Shown: positions 49,799 through 55,674 of the stretch, piece after piece
Layout: every line of letters starts with the position of its first letter
Numbering within the stretch: the stretch's first letter is position 1
From: Thermoplasmata archaeon
GTDB lineage: Archaea; Thermoplasmatota; Thermoplasmata; RBG-16-68-12; JAFNFQ01
DNA: 64,000 bases
Assembly (NCBI GenBank): GCA_041489255.1
Contig: JBGPQV010000002.1
Span: forward strand, 32,001-96,000
Direction of reading: 5' to 3'
Program-made: the position numbers and the translations under genes
The notes under the pieces: generated by a model
Databases searched by the model: none
What the model saw: only the letters and a program-made list of their open reading frames with translations
What the model was told of the DNA's origin: nothing

Positions 49799-50725
49799 GT
49801 GGATGGCTTCGCGGCTTTCCGCGTCCTCACCGGTCTGGCTTTCCTCGGCTTCGCCTCATGCCGAGACTTGAAAACGCGCCGCGTTCCCGATGAGGTCTGG
49901 ATCGTGATGGGCGTCTTGGCCCTGGTTTTGCTCGAGGTCGAACTCGTCCAAGGGGGAGCCTCCTGGGAACATCAGCTACTCCTTGTCCCGACTGCGATTA
50001 TCTTCTTCGGCGTCTTCTTCGGGGAGGAGATGTGGACCGAGGAAGGATTCAGATTGAGACCCATCAGACTCATCGTCTACGCAGTTGCAGGCCTGCTCTT
50101 GGCGTTCCTCGCGTATCATTTCTGGAGCACGAGCGGCAGCGATTCCAATGCGTTCTGGGGCCACCTGAGCATGCCCATAATGCTCGTCCTCGCTCACGTG
50201 TTTTACCAGTTCGGGTTGCTTCGCGGCGGGGCGGATGCAAAGGCGTTCATGTCGATTGCCATCCTCGTGCCAATCTATCCGAGCATTGGACCCGGACTAC
50301 CGCTCGTTAGTCTCTCCCCGACCATCCAGCATGCCGTCGATCTGATGTTTCCTTTCGCGCTCGTCGCCCTCCTTGACGCTGCGCTCCTGCTTGTGTTCCT
50401 ACCGCTGTTCTTCCTGGTATTCAATGCATTACGTGGAGACGCCAAGGGAATCCAAGCACTTTTCGGCTACCGAGTCGGCATCGACAAAGTGCCCAAGTTC
50501 GTCTGGCTGATGGACAGGGTGGAGAACGGCAAGCATCTCAGGATCCTTCTGCCTCGGAAGAGGGAGGACCGGAATGAACAGATCGCGAGGCTACGAGAGA
50601 AAGGCTTCGACCGCGTGTGGGTGACGCCGCAGATTCCATTCCTCGTGCCCATGACCTTCGGGTTTGCCGCGGCCTTCCTTGTGGGCAACTTCAGCTTAGG
50701 CCTGACGCTGCTGTTCGGGCGGTGA
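49799..50725 (+). CDS. A24 prepilin/preflagellin peptidase (FlaK/PibD-like)
   Basis: DLKTRRVPD, GGADAKA, VWVTPQIPFLVP; GTG start after TATA ttatataa at 49771. Confidence 0.88.
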   Translation: MDGFAAFRVLTGLAFLGFASCRDLKTRRVPDEVWIVMGVLALVLLEVELVQGGASWEHQLLLVPTAIIFFGVFFGEEMWTEEGFRLRPIRLIVYAVAGLLLAFLAYHFWSTSGSDSNAFWGHLSMPIMLVLAHVFYQFGLLRGGADAKAFMSIAILVPIYPSIGPGLPLVSLSPTIQHAVDLMFPFALVALLDAALLLVFLPLFFLVFNALRGDAKGIQALFGYRVGIDKVPKFVWLMDRVENGKHLRILLPRKREDRNEQIARLREKGFDRVWVTPQIPFLVPMTFGFAAAFLVGNFSLGLTLLFGR

Positions 50726-50740
50726 ATGAGCGGGATTCCG

Positions 50741-50760
50741 GAAAAAGAAGCCTTTTATAG
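50741..50760 (+). promoter_or_regulatory. Archaeal BRE/TATA promoter of the 5S-like RNA
   Basis: Purine-rich gaaaaagaag followed by TTTTATAG, about 25-30 nt upstream of the RNA start. Confidence 0.6.
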
Positions 50761-50785
50761 GGCCGATGTTCTACTTCCCGACAGC

Positions 50786-50976
50786 AGTGGTACGACGGTC
50801 AAAGCGGCGGTGATACACCCGGTCTCTTTCCGAACCCGGAAGTTAAGCCCGTCCACGTTCTCCGCTGTACTGTGGTGCGCGAGCACACGGGAAGCCTATC
50901 CCCGTAAGGGGCCTCCGGCAAGCGACCTAGGTACGCTAGCCGCCTACCCTTGTGGTAGGTGACGAAACGTACCGCT
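50786..50976 (+). rRNA. rrf: 5S rRNA (or 5S-derived RNA) with an atypical, expanded 3' part
   Basis: 50788-50895 carries 5S hallmarks: ACACCCGG..CCGAAC.CGGAAGTTAAGC, loop E TGTA/GGAA, GCGA tetraloop. After 50895 the sequence is non-canonical; 50968-50976 can pair with 50786-50794. Confidence 0.8.
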
Positions 50977-53900
50977 TTAACGGCCGTTTGTCGGTGGAAC
51001 GCTGTCGGCCACTGCCTCGCGCTTCTTTCTCTTTCTGCTGAGGAACCTCTGGCCCGCGAAGATGAACATGGGTATCGCGATCGGGATGATCACGTCCTGG
51101 AATTCAGGGATGATCACGGTTGCCGACGCCTTGCTCTCCGACAATTTATACCCACTCTGCGAGGTGTAGTTCAGGAACACCCAGTTCACCAGTATCGAGT
51201 TCTGTGCAGGGTTCTTGATCTGCACCGTGATCGTGAAGCTGTGCGCGCCCGGACCCACGTTCGCGAAAATCCAACGGTACGTCTGGCCGCTCCACGAAGA
51301 AGGAGCGACGCTCGCTCCGAGATACGTCACGTCGGTCGGCAGCGTGTCGTTGATCCACACCCTCAGGGCGTTGGCGCTGCCCGTGTTGTTGAAGTAGATT
51401 GTGTAGGTGACGATCGCACCAGGGACCGTCACAGATGGCGATGCAGTTTTCTCAACCTTGATTGTCGGCCTCCGGCACGTGAAGTTCGCCCACGAAACGC
51501 TGCGCTCCATCCATCTGCCAAGCTGATCCGTGTAGTTGCCGAAGACCGTGTTCACTTGGAGGGTGCTATCCTGGGCATTTCCGTTCACCTGAGCGATAAT
51601 CGTGAACGACCTTGGAGCTCCAGCAGGAACATTGGCGAATCTCCATCTGTAGGTGTTCCCGCTCCAGGAAAATGGAGGGACGCTGCTGGAGTAGAAGGTG
51701 ACTCCGGCAGGGAGTGTGTCGTTGATCCACACCGCTCTCGACACTGCATCGCCCGTGTTGTTGTAATAGACGGTGTATTGGACGTAGTCGCCCGGACCAG
51801 CGATCAGCACATTCAGCGTTTTCACGACCCTGATGATTGGGCGATATCTGTCGTTGGGCCCACCTCTGGTCGGAATGCTGGACACATACCAATCTGAATT
51901 CGCATCCGTGTCGACTGGTTTGCCGTCGCTCGCCGCTTTGAATCGGGCCCAAGTCTGCGTCGTGCTGATCGAGGGATATGTAGTCGCATCGACAATCGTG
52001 TTGGCTGAATCCCTGAGGATAATGTTGCCGTTGGAACCCGGGAGGTCGCCTGAGGGAATATTGACCGAGAGATACTCGGCGCCGCTCAACCACGATCCGA
52101 TAATCTCCGTCGTGAATGTGTAGATTGTGATGTACTTGTTCCCTTTGATGATCTGCAGTCTCCACCCACTGAGAGCGACCGGAGAGGATGTGGGGTTCGC
52201 GAGTTCCACCCACGCGGCTCCTTTTTGAGGATATATCTCGTTGATGACAACGTTGTCGCCAGCAGGGGATCGCACGCCGTATCTCCCTCCCCTCGTGAGG
52301 AGAGGTGAGACTGAGTCGGTGTCGCGCAACCAGTCGGTCATGTAGACGATGACCCTGAAACCTGGCACGAGGCCGAACACGGTGGCATTCGCCGCCATCT
52401 CCAACCTGCCAGAGTCGATGGCAGCCGCGACATTTCCCATCCATTCGAACGGCACATTCGCGTTCGGGCGGTACCTGAAAAGGCTCGCATTGTTGAGCTG
52501 CCCCTGGCGCCCATTCGCCACGAGCGCATAGTCGACACCATAGACCTGGCCTTCGATCTCCGTATAGAGACCTGTCGCAGTGCTGTTGTCCGCGTCGACG
52601 TACGCAAATGCCGTGTCCATGCCGGTGGGGACGTTGTAGGAGAAAGGCCCCACGTATCGCGACACAATCCTCCCTGCGTAGGGAGCTGGGAAATAGCTAG
52701 GGATCGTCGCGTTGAGCCAGAAGTCCGAGCCTGCGGGATAATCGAGAACGCCGTCCGCATCAACATCGCCATTCGATTGACTGTCAGGGGTTCCGTCGTT
52801 GTTGAAGTCATCCGGAAGAGAATCTATTGAGTCGGGCACCGTGTCCCCATCTGCATCCGTGAATTGCGCTGGAATCGGCCTTTCTCTGAGATTGGGTAGG
52901 TCCTCACCACCAAGCATCCGACCCTGAACCTTCATGTAGAAAGCGAAATCGGCAGTGACATTCAGCCCGACCTCCGCGATGTCGACGTTCGTGTTGATCG
53001 ATTCCAGGCCTCCGGAGGAGCGCACATCCCATAGTCCGTCCCTTTGAACCTTCGCCGCGTCCCAATCCCCAAACACCCCATCGATGGTCACCTTGGGCGC
53101 TTGGCGGTAGTAGGTCCCCGAGATAATCGAGTCCTTGAGATCCACGAGTGAATTTGTGGATATGGCAGAAACCTTGAGCGTCAGCGAGCTCGCATCCGGG
53201 GCAGCTGAGAGGTGCGCAACCACGAAGAGCGAGACGCTCTCCCCCTCTCTAATCGTCAGGTCGACTCCGAGACTGCCGATTCCAGAGATGAACGAGGATG
53301 TGTTGAGCAGCGTGTCAGCAGGCTCGTACGTCCCATCGTTGTCGTCAAGATGAAGGCTCAGCACCACGGACTGGTCGGGCATCGAACCCTGCTTGGTGAC
53401 GTTGACGGCATGGATTGTGCTCGAACCTGCCTCGGCCCGCAGGCGCACATAGAGGAAAGCTTGATCGTCAACCGTCATGATGTCGCTCACGAGAGTCCTC
53501 TGGGTCACTGCGAGCGTGGAATATGCCACACATGCGACGTCATCCGCGATGTCGATCACTCCGGTCGTGTTCGCGGTTAGAACGATGATGTGGGCCTCGC
53601 TTGGTTCGGCCAACGGCATCATGAACTCGAGCATGCTTCCTGAAGTCGCTGCCGCGATCGCATTTCTGTGCGAGAACGCAGAGAGATTGTTCTGACCCCC
53701 GCCAAGCCCCGAAGTCCATTCCGAGACTCTCGAACCCGCCATCTTTCCATCATAGCCGCTGATCAGAACGTCCATATCGGCACCTATGCCGCCTATCGAA
53801 TATCCTGTGGACGGTCGCCCGTCCGCGTCCACCATGATTATGATATAATCAATGAGGTCCGGTGCGGCGGGAGCACTCGGTGTGTCGAACATGACTCCGT

Positions 53901-55674
53901 CGACCTCGACATATACGGCGAGCTGCCCATCTTGCGAGGAGACCTTTGTTGATACGATATCCAGGTCAGAGCGGTAGGAGACATTGGCTCCCCTTGTGTC
54001 CCCGACCGCGTCGTCATGCGTCGGGATTCCTGCCCAGTCTGAGAAGCTGCCATCGACTCTCAGGATCGTCGTCTGAGGCCCGCTTGGGATGAGAGTTGCT
54101 ATCAACGGCGCGAGGAGGAGAATCGCGATTACGGCAGCGACTACGCCTGCGGACCTGAACCAGCCTCGTTCCGCACGGTAGATCGGCTGGAACCTTCCGC
54201 GCCTTCCGTTGGTGAAGCCGTTCCCATTCACTAGGCCGTTCACATGACCTATGCCGTTGACGAGGCCGTACACTCTCCCCAAGCCGTTGACCAGGCCGTT
54301 GGTCCTCCCGATGCCGTTCACAAGACCGTTCGTCCTTCCGAGACCGTTGACCAAGCCGTTCGTCCGGCCAATGCCGTTAACCAAGCCATTGGTTCGGCCT
54401 AGCCCGTTGACAAGGCCGTTGGTTCTCCCGATCCCGTTGACCAGCCCGTTGACGCGCCCTTCCCTCGGCGTCCCTTTTGCGCGGGGAACGCCGACCGTCC
54501 TCAGACCTTCGAGAGCTTTCCGCTCGCCCTCCATCTTCATGCGGCGGACGTCTTTGGCGCGCGCCCTCGATGTGTCAGCCTCCTCGTTCCTGCCAAGCCT
54601 CTGCAAGAGCTCCGCCCTCGTCTCCCACGCGACATCGAGCCTCGAATCCGATCGAAGGAGGCGCTCGTAGTAGCTGAGCGCTTTCTGGATTGCCGATATC
54701 TCCGTGGCAGGTTTCTCCGGCGGCGCCATCGCCGACCATCGTGGCGGTATCAAGGACGAGTCGGCCAGGGTCTCGGCCAGGTTCAGGACCTGCAGTCTGT
54801 ACTCCTCATCCCTGGCGGGATTGATCTTCGCTGCCCTCTCGAGGCATTGCACCGCCTCCTTGGGCCGCCCGAGCTCACGGAGAACGTGCGACTTCAGTAC
54901 CCAAGCCCTTTCGAGCTTCGGGTCAACTTCCAGCAGTTCTTCGTAGTGTCTCAACTCCTCGCCGAGCTGGTCCGCTCTTGTCGGAGTCTTCTCGGCGACC
55001 CTCTGCCAGCGGGCGAGGAAGTCTTGGGAAACGCCTTTGCTTTCCTTGATCTCTGGGGCCGGGATTTCCCCAAGAACGGTTTCCTCGGCGGATGAATAAC
55101 CGCATATGCCGCACCTCTCTGCCCCGGGAGCGAGGAAGGCGCCACAATGGGGGCAGACCTTGACCTCCTCCTTCTCAACCTGTGTGACGACTTCCCTGGG
55201 GAGCTCCTCCTCCACCGCCTCAGCCTCTTCGATCACCTGATGGCATGTGGAACAACTCTCGGCATCCTTGGACAGGAATGCGCCGCAATTGGAGCAGATA
55301 TAGAGCGCCGGCTGCTCGGAGACTCCCTTGGCGGGCTCCGCCGCTGGAGCAGGCGCCCCGTCTTCCTCCTCTTCGAACTCCGTGCCGCATTGAGGACAGA
55401 TCTCCGAGTCTGCACTGGCGAATGCGCCGCAGACAGGGCAAATGAACAGCTCCGCCTTATTGGAATACCATCGGTCGCCTATGGAGATCGACTCGGAGGC
55501 CTTCGCCCTCACCGCGGTTGCCTCCTCCAGGGAGAGCACGCATGATTCCGCGATCGCCTCCGGAGTGGCATCCGCAAGGTCATCGATCCGCGGGTACCTT
55601 GCGCGGACTCTCGCCGCCTTCTCGCGGTCGAGGTCGCAGGTCGTCAGTAGCCACTCTTCGTACAGCTCATCCAT
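50977..55674 (-). CDS. 1565-aa membrane-spanning protein: zinc ribbons, TPR, NG-repeat, TM, extracellular sugar-binding-like/LTD/DUF11 domains, PEF-CTERM
   Basis: Three CxxCGAF...CxxC pairs; TPR-like helices; TM GVVAAVIAILLLAPLIATLI; two (I/V)DG.F.DW domains; VVINEI..WVELANP (lamin-tail-like); two DUF11-like units; IPEF-TM-RKRKKR. Confidence 0.88.
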   Translation of the reverse strand: MDELYEEWLLTTCDLDREKAARVRARYPRIDDLADATPEAIAESCVLSLEEATAVRAKASESISIGDRWYSNKAELFICPVCGAFASADSEICPQCGTEFEEEEDGAPAPAAEPAKGVSEQPALYICSNCGAFLSKDAESCSTCHQVIEEAEAVEEELPREVVTQVEKEEVKVCPHCGAFLAPGAERCGICGYSSAEETVLGEIPAPEIKESKGVSQDFLARWQRVAEKTPTRADQLGEELRHYEELLEVDPKLERAWVLKSHVLRELGRPKEAVQCLERAAKINPARDEEYRLQVLNLAETLADSSLIPPRWSAMAPPEKPATEISAIQKALSYYERLLRSDSRLDVAWETRAELLQRLGRNEEADTSRARAKDVRRMKMEGERKALEGLRTVGVPRAKGTPREGRVNGLVNGIGRTNGLVNGLGRTNGLVNGIGRTNGLVNGLGRTNGLVNGIGRTNGLVNGLGRVYGLVNGIGHVNGLVNGNGFTNGRRGRFQPIYRAERGWFRSAGVVAAVIAILLLAPLIATLIPSGPQTTILRVDGSFSDWAGIPTHDDAVGDTRGANVSYRSDLDIVSTKVSSQDGQLAVYVEVDGVMFDTPSAPAAPDLIDYIIIMVDADGRPSTGYSIGGIGADMDVLISGYDGKMAGSRVSEWTSGLGGGQNNLSAFSHRNAIAAATSGSMLEFMMPLAEPSEAHIIVLTANTTGVIDIADDVACVAYSTLAVTQRTLVSDIMTVDDQAFLYVRLRAEAGSSTIHAVNVTKQGSMPDQSVVLSLHLDDNDGTYEPADTLLNTSSFISGIGSLGVDLTIREGESVSLFVVAHLSAAPDASSLTLKVSAISTNSLVDLKDSIISGTYYRQAPKVTIDGVFGDWDAAKVQRDGLWDVRSSGGLESINTNVDIAEVGLNVTADFAFYMKVQGRMLGGEDLPNLRERPIPAQFTDADGDTVPDSIDSLPDDFNNDGTPDSQSNGDVDADGVLDYPAGSDFWLNATIPSYFPAPYAGRIVSRYVGPFSYNVPTGMDTAFAYVDADNSTATGLYTEIEGQVYGVDYALVANGRQGQLNNASLFRYRPNANVPFEWMGNVAAAIDSGRLEMAANATVFGLVPGFRVIVYMTDWLRDTDSVSPLLTRGGRYGVRSPAGDNVVINEIYPQKGAAWVELANPTSSPVALSGWRLQIIKGNKYITIYTFTTEIIGSWLSGAEYLSVNIPSGDLPGSNGNIILRDSANTIVDATTYPSISTTQTWARFKAASDGKPVDTDANSDWYVSSIPTRGGPNDRYRPIIRVVKTLNVLIAGPGDYVQYTVYYNNTGDAVSRAVWINDTLPAGVTFYSSSVPPFSWSGNTYRWRFANVPAGAPRSFTIIAQVNGNAQDSTLQVNTVFGNYTDQLGRWMERSVSWANFTCRRPTIKVEKTASPSVTVPGAIVTYTIYFNNTGSANALRVWINDTLPTDVTYLGASVAPSSWSGQTYRWIFANVGPGAHSFTITVQIKNPAQNSILVNWVFLNYTSQSGYKLSESKASATVIIPEFQDVIIPIAIPMFIFAGQRFLSRKRKKREAVADSVPPTNGR
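54206..54460 (-). repeat. In-frame 30-bp (10-aa) tandem repeat GR(T/V)NGLVNG(I/L), about 8 copies
   Basis: Visible in both translation and DNA; copies differ mostly at synonymous positions. Confidence 0.95.

Follow-up and report, generated by a model that had tools for sequence, protein, structure and literature searches.

We analysed a window of 64,000 nucleotides (nt) from a Thermoplasmata archaeon (assembly GCA_041489255.1, contig JBGPQV010000002.1, positions 32,001 to 96,000 of the forward strand), in which a 5S ribosomal RNA (rRNA) gene with an expansion segment (ES) of 100 nt was found on the + strand. The original prediction for this stretch, made from its letters alone, had described a 5S-like gene whose core is normal up to GGGAAGC, ending at 50895, and had noted that the expected partner of helix V is absent directly after that position. 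These observations held. An Rfam search matched RF00001 at 50791-50910 with 64 bits, against a gathering cut-off of 38. The 3′ boundary given by this match, 50910, is an artefact: because the RF00001 model cannot span the insert, helix I is forced onto the first hairpin of the insert, with several pairs marked as non-standard. The 3′ strands of helices V and I lie at 50996-51001 and 51002-51015, 100 nt downstream of 50895. Thus, the 3′ end of the gene was not replaced, and the RNA does not end at 50976, as had been proposed. With a probability of about 85%, the locus is the sole, functional 5S rRNA gene of its genome, transcribed from its own archaeal promoter into an RNA of ~237 nt in which the 100-nt expansion is kept. 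This reading builds on four things that were observed for the expanded 5S rRNA, namely its fold, its conservation, its single copy and its presence in RNA libraries.

Architecture of the expanded 5S rRNA

The whole RNA was described by a covariance model built here, R1. Its features are as follows, where pairing partners are given for each helix strand.

50784-51020, + strand: whole expanded 5S rRNA gene, ~237 nt, matched by R1 at 50784-51016 with 239.8 bits
50784-50798, + strand: helix I, 5′ strand, with a bulged A at 50792; pairs with 51002-51015
50806-50853, + strand: helix II, loop B, helix III and loop C (canonical beta domain), from the Rfam alignment
50856-50861, + strand: proximal part of helix V, 5′ strand; pairs with 50996-51001
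50864-50895, + strand: distal pairs of helix V, loop E, helix IV and loop D (canonical gamma domain), from the Rfam alignment
50896-50995, + strand: ES, 100 nt, in the 3′ strand of helix V, adjoining loop E
50900-50911, + strand: short arm of the ES, a 4-bp hairpin with a GUAA loop
50915-50927, + strand: basal helix of the long arm of the ES, 5′ strand; pairs with 50982-50994
50928-50929, + strand: conserved 2-nt side (UA) of an asymmetric internal loop, opposite the 8-nt side at 50974-50981
50930-50935, + strand: inner helix of the ES (6 bp), 5′ strand; pairs with 50968-50973
50936-50938 and 50964-50967, + strand: A-rich internal loop flanking the apical hairpin
50939-50963, + strand: apical hairpin of the ES, variable
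50968-50973, + strand: inner helix of the ES, 3′ strand; pairs with 50930-50935
50974-50981, + strand: conserved 8-nt side of the asymmetric internal loop; contains TTA
50982-50994, + strand: basal helix of the ES, 3′ strand; pairs with 50915-50927
50996-51001, + strand: proximal part of helix V, 3′ strand; pairs with 50856-50861
51002-51015, + strand: helix I, 3′ strand; pairs with 50784-50798 in a 14-bp helix

The exact ends of the RNA (~50784 and ~51020) are those suggested by helix I. All canonical elements of 5S rRNA are kept, from helices I-V to loops A-E, and the motifs of loop C and loop E are present when compared with RF00001. The ES begins with four unpaired bases, which are followed by the short hairpin. 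Together with helix V it forms a four-way junction, from which the short hairpin and a long unbranched arm project.

To place the insertion site, the gene was compared with insert-free 5S genes of the same class, which are 75-85% identical to its core. In 11 pairwise comparisons, the extra sequence always fell within 50893-50998. It took the form of one 98-nt gap inside 50894-50994 in five of them, while in the remaining comparisons it was mostly in several pieces, and in two only part of it was listed as large gaps. The gene resembles a canonical archaeal 5S rRNA gene in passing the gathering score of RF00001, in possessing helices I-V and the loop C and loop E motifs, which covary, and in standing alone with a promoter of its own. 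It differs in length, with ~237 nt compared to ~120-135 nt. In Thermoplasma, too, the 5S rRNA gene stands alone and has its own promoter.

A search of the insert alone against Rfam returned no family; the sole match, to a CRISPR-repeat over 12 nt, had an E-value of 0.93 and is attributed to chance. The K-turn, sarcin-ricin and UAA/GAN motifs were tried for the two conserved internal loops, by eye against their consensus motifs, and none fits.

Covariation and conservation of core and insert

We next examined the structure in two alignments. The first was structure-blind and was computed with MAFFT from 36 distinct sequences of seven families of the same order. In this alignment, RNAalifold predicted the outer helix I unaided, with compensatory changes. 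The hand-drawn full structure was paired in 93.5% of the cells, while column shuffles reached 86.8±0.3% (0/500 as high) and partners that were slid along the alignment gave only 28-46%. Double changes were found in 30 pairs, compared to 22.1±1.8 in shuffles and 9-13 when slid. The second alignment, A2, was fitted with R1 and held 63 distinct sequences, from 12 families and from unplaced metagenome-assembled genomes (MAGs). Here, too, 93.5% of the cells were paired, versus 82.2±0.3% in shuffles, and 44 out of 71 pairs were compensatory, versus 31.6±2.2 in shuffles and 14-22 when slid. Inside the insert, 27 out of 29 modelled pairs showed double changes.

The original prediction had taken the core helices to be lost, unlike those of Halococcus. 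In fact all of them are kept and supported by covariation: once the 3′ strands at 50996-51015 are used, the core helices are 92-99.6% paired, with compensatory changes. In A2, helix I was paired in 92.5% of the cells and had compensatory changes in 9 of its 14 pairs. Helices 2 and 3 of this alignment (beta domain) were 99.5% paired, and helices 5 and 6 (gamma domain) were 96.0% and 99.6% paired, with 5 out of 10 pairs compensatory. The proximal part of helix V, whose two strands are separated by the insert, was paired in 93.9% of the cells, and two sequences carried a double change from U-A to C-G.

The ES covaries as well. In A2, all five pairs of the short arm were compensatory (5/5; 96.5% of the cells paired), as were all pairs of the basal helix (13/13, A2 helices 8-10; 73-89% of the cells paired). 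The inner helix was paired in 98.7% of the cells, with compensatory changes in 5 out of 6 pairs, while in the apical hairpin 3 out of 5 modelled pairs were compensatory. Two hairpins that had been read from the sequence at 50900-50911 and 50941-50961 thus exist and covary. ES length ranged from 95 to 115 nt among the 63 sequences, and mean column identity was 0.69 in the insert versus 0.90 in the core. The most conserved parts of the ES were its internal loops and the 6-bp inner helix. In the asymmetric loop, A50929 and G50974 were each kept in 62/63 sequences and A50980 in 63/63; in the A-rich loop, the A residues at 50938, 50965 and 50966 were kept in 58/63, 61/63 and 56/63 sequences, respectively. 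The loop motifs comprise the invariant A that follows the basal helix, a G-Y-U-U-K-A-A loop and a GAA loop.

Folding of single sequences gave a similar picture. The minimum free energy (MFE) folds of 11 representatives contained helix I in all 11, the inner 6-bp helix in 10 and the basal helix in 9; the representatives of families f7 and f5 adopted other local MFE folds at the ES basal helix. The whole RNA of the window had an MFE of -106.9 kcal/mol (z = -3.72), and none of 200 shuffled sequences folded as well. The insert alone folded at -44.7 kcal/mol (z = -2.98).

The original prediction had closed the RNA by a helix between 50786-50794 and 50968-50976, and had derived from it two alternative folds. 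If this were correct, the RNA could switch folds, with 50968-50976 and the true 3′ end as alternative partners of 50786-50794, and could act as a regulatory element or as a checkpoint in assembly. The alternative pairing is indeed possible in 83.8% of the cells of the 63 sequences, versus 19-61% when partners are slid. However, this value equals that of column-shuffled controls (84.0±0.6%; 337/500 as high). A double change was present in only 5 cells, compared to 7.6 expected, and by pairs the count was 3, compared to 3.2 expected. Moreover, one of the partners, 50968-50973, already belongs to the inner helix of the ES, and the competing true helix I has 14 bp. A switch between two folds is therefore very unlikely; the proposal of two folds rests on a pairing without support from covariation, and we treat the complementarity as incidental. 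The complementarity may stem from a resemblance between the inner 5′ strand of the insert and the 5′ end of 5S rRNA, which might also hint at the origin of the segment.

Carriers, RNA libraries and flanking sequences

The genome to which the window belongs is an assembly of 41 contigs with an estimated completeness of 96.5%, a value that leaves room for a missed copy. RF00001 and R1 each found one 5S gene in it. The search for another intact 5S gene, which had been suggested alongside the original prediction, thus returned no second copy. Within the same order, 39 out of 41 relatives had a 5S match, and the insert was present in all 39 of the 5S loci that were read (37 complete, 2 cut at contig ends).

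In a sample of 151 genomes of the class, R1 matched 143. Fifty-eight of these matches were full-length (229-248 nt) and three more were truncated at contig ends, which gives 61 out of 151 genomes with the insert. The carriers belonged to 12 of the 29 sampled families: six of the window's own order, together with f10, f14, f21, f28, f13 and f22. A seventh carrier family of the own order, f5, was read outside the class sample. The fraction of carriers was 15/15 in f10, 9/10 in f14, 15/17 in f21 and 2/2 in f28, and no mixed family was found within the class sample. The other 82 matched genomes, from 17 families, had far weaker best E-values, and their listed matches were ~120-136 nt long. Twelve of these non-carrier genes were read and are ordinary 5S genes. 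The non-carriers include families with many closed genomes and with two or three 5S copies.

The expansion extends beyond the class. A sample of the phylum comprised 151 genomes, of which 125 were from other classes, and full-length matches were obtained in 18 of these 125. The carriers were found in f42 (8/9), f63 (2) and f45 (2), with one each in f58, f60, f44, f40, f53 and f62. When 12 of them were read, 12/12 had a homologous-looking insert at the same site. Families f45, f40, f53 and f63 mix carriers with non-carriers; f45, for example, has two genomes with the long form and ten with matches of ~134 nt. Mixed families point to recent losses, gains or replacement of the 5S gene. In f53, one genome (G249, locus L215) has a full segment of ~95 nt, while another (G207, locus L225) has a 5S gene of 159 nt with two small hairpins (~30 nt) at the same insertion site. 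The short insert could be either a reduced version of the expansion or an early stage of it.

Some loci were set apart from the carriers. R1 matches of 210-233 nt with ~72 bits (f52, G298, G229) were ordinary 5S genes into which downstream sequence had been absorbed, and they were not counted. Neither were L223 (G298) and L224 (G229), which are bacterial-type 5S genes on separate contigs or places and are probably due to contamination of the Thermoplasmatota bins. In G069 (f12), two 5S-like genes, L190 and L191, depart from the normal 3′ part of their family after helix IV. They are unlike the expansion described here, and may hold a different insert or be damaged copies. When R1 was run on 80 of at least 120 stretches of metagenome contigs, obtained by an unspecific pattern scan, no 5S was found in these 80.

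These counts bear on whether the locus could be a 5S-derived pseudogene, a decoy or another non-ribosomal RNA, with the working 5S gene elsewhere in the genome or unassembled. The assembly is a fragmented MAG, a kind of genome in which rRNA genes are often missed, and Stepanov and Fox (PMC7812874) mention that some expanded 5S genes resemble pseudogenes. Against this, two models agree on one 5S gene in the genome, and a single match was found in 55 out of the 58 full-length carrier genomes, including the one-contig assemblies G077 and G168. The core helices and loop motifs are all intact and covary, and the sequence occurs in RNA libraries of several habitats. We thus regard a non-ribosomal fate of the locus as having little to recommend it, and retain the reading as the sole and functional 5S gene.

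A second, weaker R1 match was seen in two carrier genomes, G113 and G167. The one in G113 (G113:C19:3-126) measures 124 nt, lies at a contig end and covers model positions 16-219; contamination of G113 is 6%. The second matches could represent an insert-free second copy or contamination.

Parts of the sequence were present in 20 public sequencing runs from 11 studies, 15 of which are recorded as RNA. From each of four studies (soil, peat, river and sediment), one metatranscriptome run was compared with the window over 50700-51100. Their contigs covered the following positions.

X1: 50793-50983, 0 differences
X3: 50831-51009, 5 differences, depth 58.8
X7: 50793-51006, 6 differences
X9: 50842-50939 and 50910-51001, 0-6 differences

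The 5′ junction of the insert (50895/50896) was bridged in 4/4 studies. The 3′ junction (50995/50996) was covered in X3, X7 and X9, with fewer than the 31 flanking letters required of a bridging record. Core and insert are contiguous in the RNA libraries and the flanks are silent, as the four runs had no depth before 50784 or after 51021.

Two further explanations were weighed. According to the first, the 100-nt segment is an intervening sequence (IVS): either an intron that is spliced, or an IVS that is excised without ligation and leaves a 5S rRNA in two pieces that helices I and V hold together. Introns are known from archaeal rRNA genes and excised IVSs from bacterial rRNAs, the insert forms a domain that folds by itself, and partial processing is compatible with the contigs. 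As in archaeal introns of the bulge-helix-bulge (BHB) type, which occur in rRNA and tRNA genes, an intervening stretch is found in the gene of a stable archaeal RNA. In contrast to such introns, there is no BHB at the borders, the structure and the loops are conserved, and the insert is retained in the RNA contigs. No BHB could be drawn when the covariation-supported structure was inspected, no dedicated BHB program being run: the start of the insert is single-stranded and leads into a hairpin of its own, while the 3′ exon at 50996-51001 pairs with the exon at 50856-50861. No Rfam intron or ribozyme family matches. The contigs of the four studies bridge the 5′ junction, those of three also cover the 3′ junction, and no joint, that is, no spliced form, was reported in these runs, where contigs drop rare forms. 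Finally, the loop nucleotides are invariant across families and classes, which is unexpected of a spacer that is discarded. Removal of the segment is thus improbable, and a 5S rRNA in which it is kept is the preferred reading.

According to the second explanation, the insert results from an assembly chimera at 50895, or from a recent foreign integration there. All that speaks for it is that the Rfam alignment breaks off abruptly near 50895-50910. The same junctions recur in independent assemblies, 58 full-length and 3 truncated in the class and 18 more in the phylum, as well as in the RNA contigs of four studies, and no repeats or features of mobile elements were seen at the borders. The likelihood of this explanation is next to nil. 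A chimera at 50895 had itself been raised by the original prediction, which had also listed a decoy RNA, an intron or ribozyme and a gene disrupted by integration; all four are disfavoured by the single copy, the conservation, the lack of an Rfam match and the junction-bridging contigs.

Several points weigh against a functional, retained expansion. Because A2 was built by fitting sequences to the model, it favours the structure in its pair counts, a bias from which the MAFFT result is free. The second pair of the proximal helix V is a G·A mismatch in family f2, and 11 of the 63 sequences in A2 have no standard pair at this position. The RNA runs are represented by assembled contigs, which give no ends, strand or abundance and leave room for processing of a minority of the molecules. 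In three studies (X1, X3 and X7), the contigs begin 9 nt within the predicted helix I, at 50793. The carriers are all uncultured MAGs, and incorporation into the ribosome is presumed, with presence in metatranscriptome contigs as indirect support. The open frames of ribosomal protein uL18 span ~165-215 amino acids (aa) in carriers and non-carriers alike, with no extension specific to carriers.

In X3, Illumina adapter sequence abuts 50793. The start of contigs at this position could reflect a bias of fragment ends, strain variation upstream or a real 5′ end.

Three features flank or overlap the RNA gene.

50753-50759, + strand: TATA-like, A/T-rich element, seen in the sequence itself, ~25-30 nt upstream of where the RNA starts
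51021-51040, + strand: pyrimidine- and T-rich tract, read from the sequence, likely a transcription stop
50977-55674, - strand: convergent open reading frame (ORF) of 1565 aa, from the ORF list, distinct from the RNA; overlaps the RNA gene by ~40-44 nt

The A/T-rich element at 50753-50759 agrees with the TATA promoter that had been proposed for the gene. A TATA-like A/T hexamer was present at -24 to -38 in 59 out of 62 related genes with sufficient upstream flank, and the standard layout of archaeal promoters suggests that the element acts as the promoter here. Downstream, a run of at least three T within 35 nt was found in 37 out of 62 relatives, and the tract at 51021-51040 is likely to serve as terminator.

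The convergent ORF had been taken to mark the exact end of the feature. Instead, the RNA gene and the ORF overlap at 50977-51020, where the last ~13 codons of the ORF run antisense to the 3′ portion of the 5S gene. Its stop codon is the TTA inside the conserved 8-nt RNA loop at 50974-50981, and the apparent end of the RNA at the stop codon is a coincidence of this conserved loop containing TTA. The C-terminus of the encoded protein consists of a hydrophobic stretch, then a basic tail, then the tail encoded within the 5S gene. A neighbouring ORF that also extends 40 nt into the 5S gene and terminates at the same loop is seen in 12 out of 37 related loci; in most of the remainder, the stop lies no more than a few bases from the 3′ end of the 5S gene. 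The conservation of this short C-terminal tail merely follows from that of the rRNA. No tRNA or transfer-messenger RNA (tmRNA) was detected in the window with ARAGORN.

Relation to known 5S expansions and wider reading

An expanded 5S rRNA of this type was reportedly described from Halococcus by Luehrsen in 1981. In the main text of the survey by Stepanov and Fox (2021, PMC7812874), archaeal 5S expansions are confined to Halobacteriales, namely Halococcus, Halalkalicoccus, Halomarina and Halodesulfurarchaeum; its Table S1 and File S1 list all 89 expanded 5S rRNAs, among which a non-haloarchaeal archaeon is conceivable. The survey gives the 5S gene of Halococcus morrhuae as NZ_AOMC01000054.1:66311-66541. 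The haloarchaeal segment is described there as 108 nt inserted between core positions 104.1 and 105, adjoining loop E, and as an 'asymmetric V' whose two limbs are a short hairpin and a long arm without branches, with the distal stem-loop as its most conserved part. Tirumalai (2020, PMC7530397) reports a four-way junction where the insertion occurs (H. marismortui C108/G109), and an insert that extends flexibly from the subunit, and calls the Halococcus case the only insertion after the last universal common ancestor (LUCA) that almost doubles an rRNA.

The ES described here has much in common with that type. In both, the cell has no 5S type other than the expanded one; the insert adjoins loop E on the 3′ strand of helix V, ahead of the three-helix junction of loop A; its length is ~100 nt (108 nt in the haloarchaea, 95-115 nt here); no core helix is lost, and the site turns into a four-way junction; and the insert combines a short hairpin with a long, unbranched arm built from stems and internal loops. 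Even the published stability of the haloarchaeal segment, -44.8 kcal/mol, is close to the -44.7 kcal/mol found here. The two differ in their hosts, Halobacteriales there and Thermoplasmatota here, and in their breadth, with four genera compared to 12 of 29 families of the class together with families of other classes. The carriers found here are MAGs of non-halophiles, recovered from soil, peat, freshwater and sediment; among the matches listed, their contigs are assigned to Thermoplasmata, Thermoplasmatota, Methanobacteriota or Euryarchaeota MAGs and not to Halobacteriales. Many bacterial 5S genes matched the underlying scan of genome contigs by chance, and it supplied only these assignments and a few added sequences. 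Conservation is also distributed differently, with the distal stem-loop being most conserved there and the internal loops and 6-bp inner helix here. The Thermoplasmatota insert matches the Halococcus type in site, size and architecture, as judged from the published description. One of the four options of the original prediction, which had likened the gene to the 5S rRNA of Halococcus morrhuae, was essentially right, apart from the fate of the core helices, the two alternative folds and the length, which is ~237 nt and not ~190 nt.

The expansion segments of bacterial 5S rRNAs (Thermoanaerobacterales and others; PMC7812874) are a more distant parallel. They, too, are independently folding modules on an undisturbed 5S core. 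Unlike the ES here, they are mostly 13-46 nt long, occupy other sites, such as a bulge of helix III, and often occur alongside normal copies, scattered among strains.

We found no description of an expanded 5S rRNA in Thermoplasmatota in the full-text literature, a search that left most subscription journals and supplements outside its scope. In PMC7812874, the strings 'Thermoplasma' and 'Methanomassiliicocc' occur nowhere. That survey considered annotated 5S genes of >129 nt and looked closely only at Halobacteria. The Thermoplasmatota form was missed because Rfam-based annotation cuts these genes at ~120 nt, while the survey took genes annotated as longer than 129 nt. What is new here is that the Halococcus-type expansion is far more widespread and occurs outside the halophiles. 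A blastn search of the PLSDB plasmids returned matches to the 5S core only (query 13-101), in Halomicrobium, Halorussus, Halarchaeum and Halorubrum, none of which is a known carrier genus.

Herein, we propose how the segment may act. The 5S rRNA would be transcribed from its own archaeal promoter as a ~237-nt RNA, and the ES would stay in it, helix V becoming a four-way junction. By analogy with the Halococcus ribosome, the ES would project from the central protuberance into the solvent, where the invariant loop adenines may allow it to dock on a protein or on 23S rRNA. Incorporation into the ribosome, the place of the ES within it and any partner that it binds are all presumed. The conservation of the loops in the alignments argues for a putative specific contact of the ES. 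As a co-evolving partner, uL18 was considered and rejected, for its size does not differ between carriers and non-carriers.

A wider reading is more doubtful, and we put it forward as a conjecture that may well prove wrong. It holds that there is one ancient 5S expansion domain, which had a single origin, spread vertically in much of Thermoplasmatota with repeated losses, and was transferred, as a 5S gene or as a segment, to a few haloarchaeal genera. The domain would have been kept because its invariant A-rich loops dock a ribosomal protein, a factor or a 23S element at the central protuberance. If this were true, the 45-year-old oddity of Halococcus would be the visible tip of a widespread variant of the archaeal ribosome. 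The origin of the Halococcus insert, in any case, becomes testable.

The finding also exposes a systematic error of annotation: Rfam-based pipelines truncate these genes, so that searches for oversized annotated 5S genes pass them over. Large 5S expansions in prokaryotes have been thought of as rare curiosities, whereas here such an expansion is conserved and covaries in whole families and orders of Thermoplasmatota from soil, peat and sediment. The collection of carriers is a large comparative set for working out the role of the domain. The central protuberance would tolerate, or make use of, an additional RNA domain of ~100 nt, a tolerance that is not tied to high salt.

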